Virus record (IMG/VR): IMGVR_UViG_3300037067_026753
DNA from: a virus
DNA: 64,000 nt
Reading direction: 5' to 3' (one strand)
Part shown: one piece after another, positions 30,023 to 30,292 of the stretch
Layout of the letters: each line of letters begins with the position of its first letter
Position numbering within the stretch: position 1 is the stretch's first letter
Notes under the pieces: generated by a model
Databases searched by the model: none
Seen by the model: the letters and a program-made list of their open reading frames with translations, nothing else
What the model was told of the DNA's origin: nothing
Program-made: the position numbers and the translations under genes

Positions 30023-30292
30023 TTAATAGCCTTCAGAAAAATTATCGACAAATAACGCATTAATTGCATCACATGCAGCTTCTTCATCAGGTCCATCTGT
30101 TGTCAAATCCAAAACAGAGCCACATGTAGCAGCCAGCATCATAATACTCATAATGCTTCTTGCATCAGCTTTACAACCGTCCTTTGTTATAGTAATTGTC
30201 GACTTGAATTTCGCTGCTGTTATAACAATCAATTTAGAAGGGCGTGCATGCACGCCCATAGGATTAGTAACAGTGATTTGCCGAGAAATCAT
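30023..30292 (-). CDS. ptsH: HPr-like phosphocarrier protein
   Basis: GVHARPS (His15) and ARSIMSIM (Ser46 region); 89 aa. Confidence 0.8.
   Translation of the reverse strand: MISRQITVTNPMGVHARPSKLIVITAAKFKSTITITKDGCKADARSIMSIMMLAATCGSVLDLTTDGPDEEAACDAINALFVDNFSEGY

Follow-up and report, generated by a model that had tools for sequence, protein, structure and literature searches.

A small subclade of huge phages carries a conserved gene for the phosphocarrier protein HPr, which was most likely captured once, by the ancestor of the subclade, from a Fibrobacterota-type host. The gene lies in a 64,000-nucleotide stretch of viral DNA (IMG/VR record IMGVR_UViG_3300037067_026753; in the following, the window), directly behind a gene for a homologue of the vault protein MVP (Table 1). 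Weighing the comparative data, we somewhat favour the reading that the protein is an orphan, host-derived regulatory phosphocarrier, which would rely on enzyme I (EI) and HprK of the host and would not act as a partner of the MVP-like protein. What is new is the conserved presence of HPr in a huge-phage lineage; the protein itself is ordinary. Bacteria route much of their carbon and nitrogen signalling through HPr as a central hub, and a conserved, selected copy in a huge phage of lytic type would be a clear viral takeover of a host regulatory phosphorelay, as opposed to the carriage of a metabolic enzyme.

Table 1. Features around the HPr gene (positions in the window)
Feature	Position	Strand	Evidence and context
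DUF1848 protein	28108..28824	-	PF08902 E=1e-22; end of the conserved syntenic block; 56% identical in L005
Macro-domain protein (ADP-ribose-binding or processing)	29259..29744	-	Pfam Macro E=6e-4 (below cutoff); phrog_335 E=1e-23
Cys-rich ORF, 49 aa	29837..29986	-	36 nt downstream of HPr
HPr-family phosphocarrier gene	30023..30292	-	89 aa, ATG start; PF00381, TIGR01003, AlphaFold2 model
MVP homologue, 874 aa	30293..32917	-	MVP_shoulder, Vault_3, PDB MVP chains
R2K-clade ATP-grasp (predicted peptide ligase)	32921..33679	-	PF18299 R2K_2 E=1e-27; directly upstream of the MVP-like gene
Terminator-like hairpin, 12 bp stem and T run	33933..33962	-	Consensus scan; upstream of the orf90-R2K-MVP-HPr run
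DUF7873 protein	34451..35218	-	PF25283 E=8e-67; start of the conserved syntenic block; 79% identical in L005

A preliminary description of this DNA had recognized the signature His and the Ser46 region of HPr in the 89-residue protein, and the profile search that it proposed bears out the assignment. PF00381 (Pfam PTS-HPr) aligns residues 2–81 to profile positions 1–79 of 81 with E=1.8e-28 and 98.8 bits, well above the cutoff of 23, and NCBIfam TIGR01003 scores 95.6 bits (cutoff 47.9) with residues 1–81 of 82 aligned. At the equivalog level the protein stays below all cutoffs tested (E. coli PtsH, NPr/PtsO and Firmicute PtsH), with 70.9 bits against NF010354 (cutoff 123), 52.8 bits against NF008104 (cutoff 153) and 50 bits against the NPr model NF008146 (cutoff 119). 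The active-site loop reads GVH15AR17PS, and the regulatory-site motif R45-S46-I47-M48 is of the HprK/P type. Loss of the His15 or Ser46 equivalents, named beforehand as what would speak against an HPr, is not seen: His15 (codon CAT, 30250–30248, inside GVHARPS), Arg17 and Ser46 (codon AGC, 30157–30155, inside ARSIMSIMML) are invariant in an alignment of 54 homologous sequences and in 6/6 phage variants. We conclude that the phage protein is a bona fide HPr-family member.

As modelled by AlphaFold2 (pLDDT 95.7), the protein has the β-α-β-β-α-β-α order of an open-faced β-sandwich, with strands at residues 2–7, 32–37, 40–43 and 60–66 and helices at 16–26, 47–52 and 70–82. Foldseek superimposes this model on Thermoanaerobacter HPr (3lfg) with a TM-score of 0.95 and an rmsd of 1.0, and further matches are E. 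coli and Bacillus HPr chains, including those from complexes with HprK/P, CcpA, Rsd and glycogen phosphorylase. The start codon is called differently between assemblies: one ENA assembly (P0001) begins at Met12 (30259), giving 78 residues and losing β-strand 1, whereas JGI, Logan and another ENA assembly begin at Met1 (30292). The 89-residue form is supported by these three assemblies, by the homology of residues 1–11 to bacterial HPrs and by the predicted strand 2–7. Two antisense ORFs (30153..30662 and 30248..30700, plus strand) were dismissed as spurious shadows of the HPr coding strand.

From its one-strand gene layout, its gene content and the occurrence of MVP-like homologues on huge contigs, the window appears to derive from a huge phage. 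Nearly all genes lie on one strand and the GC content is 0.36. Encoded are a topoisomerase IA, an NAD-ligase, a CCA-adding enzyme, a NAPRTase, a thymidylate kinase and a 5'-deoxyribonucleotidase, together with an SLT lysozyme, RlaP nucleotidyltransferases and many HNH/GIY-YIG homing endonucleases. The MVP-like protein matches LR756500 and LR756501, which are 'uncultured phage' genomes of 462 and 735 kb, as well as 31 IMG/VR loci, many of them on contigs of 100–500 kb. Positions 20023–40259 of the window are 100% identical to an ENA contig, and six contigs, assembled from at least four samples, encode the identical MVP-like protein (longest listed, 424 kb). NCBI labels this identical protein as part of a 'Candidatus Nanoarchaeia archaeon' MAG (GCA_028717785.1), and for many homologues the label is Patescibacteria, Parcubacteria or Moraniibacteriota; such archaeal and Patescibacteria labels may reflect mis-binned huge-phage contigs. 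For this group of huge phages, whose contigs are frequently assigned by mistake to CPR bacteria or archaea, the HPr gene offers a clue to the host (Fibrobacterota). As a separate observation, some 850 bp of the window (52538–53392), within a region rich in homing endonucleases, do not align to the contig L036 (NCBI JAQUND010000020.1), which is elsewhere 99.3–99.9% identical; the difference probably represents a presence/absence polymorphism of a mobile intron or HNH gene.

The upstream neighbour of HPr contains both an MVP shoulder domain and vault repeats (MVP_shoulder, E=1.4e-24; Vault_3, E=1.9e-7; 86.8 bits for PF11978 and 31.5 bits for PF17795), and PDB chains of rat and human MVP (4hl8) match its residues 237–637 with E=2.4e-23. 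The HPr start had been described as abutting the MVP stop, with probable co-transcription of the two genes. The TAA stop (30295–30293) is indeed followed by the HPr ATG (30292–30290) with zero intergenic bases, and co-transcription is plausible because the genes are packed directly together in a same-strand run. In a promoter and terminator consensus scan of the region, site counts were at chance and only one strong hairpin emerged (33962–33933), possibly at the point where the transcription unit begins.

HPr is limited to one small subclade of the MVP-bearing phages, comprising six distinct sequences (the window, L038, L005, P0241, L124 and L134) in two sublineages that are about 55% identical to each other. 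In L038 the HPr is 82% identical to that of the window, with the same TAA-ATG junction. The 194.6-kb IMG/VR contig L005 encodes an MVP and an HPr that are 65% and 56% identical, respectively, and joined by a TAATG overlap; on the 158-kb contig L124 the MVP is 64% identical and an HPr of 91 residues follows through an ATGA overlap. The order DUF7873 .. R2K ATP-grasp - MVP - HPr - (small ORF) - macro .. DUF1848 is shared across the subclade. Within it, the R2K gene is syntenic in L005, L124 and L134, and the macro-domain protein downstream of HPr is 78% identical in L005. The 49-residue Cys-rich ORF is not kept in the L005/L124 sublineage, which has an ORF of 170–171 residues there instead.

By its position between the MVP-like and macro genes, its synteny in L005, L124 and L134 and its cellular closest relatives, the phage HPr qualifies as an auxiliary gene. 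The nearest cellular HPrs (49–58% identity) stem from MAGs of Chitinispirillaceae, Chitinivibrionales and Fibrobacter. In neighbour-joining trees the phage sequences are monophyletic in 158/200 bootstraps and branch with Fibrobacterota HPrs, the sister group being purely Fibrobacterota in only 64/200. Common to the phage proteins and absent in the bacterial homologues are V14 (GVHARPS), I50, L63, S86 and an extra terminal Y89 (FSE[GA]Y). The gene is under purifying selection, with dN/dS values of 0.19 (window versus L038), 0.35 (L005 versus L124) and 0.27 (L134 versus L124). Its GC3 of 0.278 lies close to the phage mean of 0.30, as opposed to 0.40–0.64 for host HPr genes. A recent transfer from the host was rejected, since GC3 is fully ameliorated, and together with the dN/dS values the phage-like GC3 indicates that the capture is old and that the gene has been maintained.

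With HPr (PtsH) from the rpoN cluster of Fibrobacterota the phage protein shares length, fold, the G-x-HARP loop, Arg17, the K/R-S46-I-M motif and both phosphorylation sites. It differs from this counterpart in being encoded without EI, HprK or EII nearby, in its phage base composition and additional C-terminal Tyr, and in derived interface residues. Of the latter, L12, I14, S20 and V50, each at least 85% conserved among Fibrobacterota HPrs, are generally changed in the phage copies, and the L005/L124 sublineage has further changes at I47, M51, M52 and A54 of helix 2. In HPr structures, helices 1 and 2 make up the common surface on which EI, EIIA, HprK/P and additional partners dock. HPr chemistry is thus retained, but partner selectivity may have shifted, and because several host-conserved interface residues are changed, recognition by host EI and HprK is not guaranteed.

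The host of the phage would likewise be a member of the Fibrobacterota, judged only from the similarity of the HPr gene. In Fibrobacterota MAGs, HPr is found in the order rpoN - lipA - hpf - mlaD - HPr - hom - thrC, an arrangement that bears the signature of a regulatory function akin to PTS-Ntr. A bona fide hprK (Pfam Hpr_kinase_N and Hpr_kinase_C) precedes mlaD-HPr in one of them (L091), and in L107 (Fibrobacter UBA4373) a ptsI gene that matches three PEP-utilizer domains comes after HPr; the candidate host phylum therefore possesses enzymes acting on both His15 and Ser46. NPr (PtsO) of the proteobacterial PTS-Ntr is a paralogue-like HPr of purely regulatory function, without sugar uptake, and is encoded in an rpoN-hpf cluster like the HPr of the candidate host, with a ptsN motif upstream in gammaproteobacterial loci. 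The phage protein differs in keeping the HprK-type Ser46 motif, and its score on the E. coli NPr equivalog places it outside the NPr orthologues. Crh from Firmicutes has in common with it the fold and a KSIM-type Ser46 motif (PDB Crh chains match with E ~1e-11) but is devoid of His15, whereas phage HPr possesses His15 and Arg17.

The absence of enzyme I and EII near the gene, as previously described, holds for the whole window. Pfam searches of all ORFs of at least 120 residues, tblastn with Fibrobacterota EI and HprK and a motif scan yielded no EI, HprK, EIIA/B/C or RapZ in the 64 kb, so that a complete PTS locus, with EI and/or EIIA/B/C beside HPr, is not found within the window. The search for ptsI and hprK in the rest of the genome that the preliminary description proposed was carried through for these 64 kb, where neither gene was detected; the longest contig listed for the identical MVP-like protein is several times that size, at 424 kb.

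Because no PTS enzyme is encoded in the window, we regard a regulatory or auxiliary role exerted through host PTS enzymes as the best reading. According to this proposal, the ancestor of the subclade would have acquired a host HPr once and retained it as an orphan auxiliary regulatory gene, expressed within the same-strand run of R2K, MVP-like and macro genes. Host EI would phosphorylate the phage protein at His15, or host HprK/P at Ser46, or both. The additional HPr pool, with its partly altered interaction surface, could then compete with or replace the HPr of the host rpoN cluster. By competition, as a phosphate sink, or by action on selected HPr targets, it would perturb HPr-based nutrient-state signalling, and carbon, nitrogen and energy-state signals of the host would no longer report the actual condition of the infected cell. 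The data establish the premises of this proposal at the level of sequence; that host enzymes phosphorylate the protein, that it competes or acts as a decoy and that the phage benefits are what we infer. Going further, and with distinctly less conviction, one may speculate that HPr acts as a signalling decoy that drains or redirects phosphoryl groups of host EI or HprK and locks the Fibrobacterota nutrient-state signal, for example by preventing an rpoN/hpf-linked shutdown, or that phospho-HPr controls the assembly of the phage vault-like MVP. If the decoy reading were true, this would be the first virus-encoded component of a regulatory PTS.

The position of the gene invites another explanation, already raised in the preliminary description, in which HPr is a functional partner of the MVP-like/R2K/macro module, be it as a phospho-dependent regulator, a cargo or a vault-like assembly factor, supplied in fixed proportion by translational coupling. 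The tight, conserved coupling of HPr to the MVP stop could indeed signify a functional link: in every genome of the subclade with a full-length MVP gene the HPr start lies 0–4 nt from the MVP stop, and the junction takes the forms TAA-ATG (window and L038), TAATG (L005) or ATGA (L124) around variants only 55% identical, within the conserved DUF7873-to-DUF1848 synteny. However, junctions of zero to a few nucleotides are usual in this phage genome (3 nt between R2K and MVP), and to our knowledge bacterial HPr has no link to MVP. In 34 other phage MVP-like loci (564 kb scanned), neither tblastn nor an HMM built from HPr homologues detected an HPr, and these loci include L123 and L125, whose MVPs are 60% and 55% identical to that of the window. 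Conversely, HPr is intact and under purifying selection in L134, where only a 101-residue C-terminal MVP remnant precedes it. A 2.3-kb deletion (junction at L134 7269–7274 versus L124 4954–7267, with 6 bp of microhomology) has removed MVP residues 1 to ~756, or about 87% of the gene. The R2K gene on one side matches its L124 counterpart at every nucleotide (100%), and identity drops to ~90% in the MVP remnant and HPr on the other; this switch suggests recombination, although the deletion could also be an assembly effect despite only 6 bp of microhomology at the junction. The deletion indicates that HPr can persist without full-length MVP, and taken with the 34 loci devoid of HPr it makes HPr a lineage-specific insertion and not a general MVP partner. 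The adjacency is explained, as far as the compared loci tell, by shared ancestry inside one small subclade. The comparative data thus go against the attractive tie between HPr and the phage vault-protein homologue, and we consider a partnership improbable.

Somewhat less probable still is that HPr serves as phosphoryl donor for a phage enzyme or transporter, or belongs to a fuller phage PTS outside the window. HPr domains do act as donors to non-transport enzymes such as DhaM; phage HPr is weakly similar to the HPr domains of DhaM and FruB, and most of the phage genome lies beyond the 64-kb window. Against a donor role, no EI, EII, DhaK/L or PRD regulator is encoded in these 64 kb or in the 10–20 kb that surround the gene in three relatives. 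It is very unlikely that the gene is a passenger without function, stems from contaminating bacterial DNA or results from chimeric assembly. Artefacts of this kind are common, and the HPr matches that we inspected in a public phage-genome collection are bacterial DNA; here, however, the identical MVP-HPr junction was assembled independently (two ENA assemblies, JGI and Logan) from at least four samples, phage genes flank HPr on both sides, its GC3 matches the phage, and the gene is conserved in diverged relatives at dN/dS of 0.19–0.35. The orphan regulatory phosphocarrier accordingly remains the reading that we prefer.

The collection in question is derived from GenBank and holds ~50,000 phage records, among which 29 HPr matches were obtained and the five largest inspected. 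All five were discarded as precedents: H1 and H2 sit in ptsO-yhbJ clusters, ptsI adjoins the match in L130, L133 carries ffh-rpsP-rimM-trmD, and L132 carries glmM and sugar-nucleotide genes. Scanning IMG/VR with single-sequence HPr patterns returned nothing, and the three matches to a HARP...KSIM codon pattern were due to chance and did not represent HPr; an alignment-based scan recovered the L005 contig only. The patterns used on IMG/VR thus found HPr only in the phage lineage described here. In the viral structure library, three remote HPr-like metagenomic proteins were the only ones found (BFVD A0A8S5S213, A0A8S5S9E0 and A0A8S5PSI8, from gut phage MAGs); they have an HPr-like fold in common with the phage protein but differ from it at 14–18% identity, TM-scores of 0.57–0.65 and E>=1e-3, represent a different lineage and are labelled viral by the database only. 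Neither PHROGs nor PADLOC returned a family for HPr or for the MVP-like protein.

A literature search for phage-encoded HPr retrieved no report. MVP-like proteins have been reported in Caudoviricetes MAGs in a 2023 preprint (bioRxiv 10.1101/2023.11.10.566534), which does not mention an HPr or PTS gene, and R2K ATP-grasp enzymes appear in a survey of 224 jumbo phages in which HPr, the PTS and vault proteins go unmentioned. The HPr linkage is specific to the phage subclade described here, as opposed to phage MVP homologues at large.

Several further genes of these phages deserve mention in their own right. In L125 (ENA ERZ925380 contig, 96 kb), positions 2803–4233, two genes upstream of the MVP-like gene, encode a WGR-PARP_reg-PARP protein, and its pairing with an MVP-like protein 55% identical to that of the window recalls the eukaryotic vault proteins MVP and vPARP. 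Beside HPr in the window, the DUF1848 protein also matches PADLOC RTasDUF1848 (DRT-associated) with E=6.5e-15, and the macro-domain protein weakly matches DarG (E=1.9e-5); counter-defence functions are possible for both. A stand-alone response-regulator receiver domain of 121 residues is encoded at 4469–4834 on the minus strand (N-terminus MPFTILVVDDQDEV; Pfam Response_reg, best E 1.3e-14 among the scanned set). Lacking an output domain, it represents a second phosphorelay module of the phage and could also be a phosphate sink or decoy.

Two larger minus-strand genes are predicted to encode host-like surface or injection proteins. The product of 21251–23812 (853 residues) contains an internal T6SS Hcp domain, and that of 23816–26116 is a predicted lipoprotein of 766 residues that combines Listeria-Bacteroides repeats with an FGE-sulfatase domain at its C-terminus; a Chitinivibrionales MAG (L003) likewise encodes an FGE-sulfatase protein near its HPr gene. 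Finally, a cluster of membrane-stress or envelope type at 42437–48537, again on the minus strand, comprises an OmpA-domain protein (589 residues), a PspA/IM30-like protein (321 residues) and an SPFH/Band-7 protein (386 residues, phrog_11908), whose SPFH fold is related to the MVP shoulder domain.
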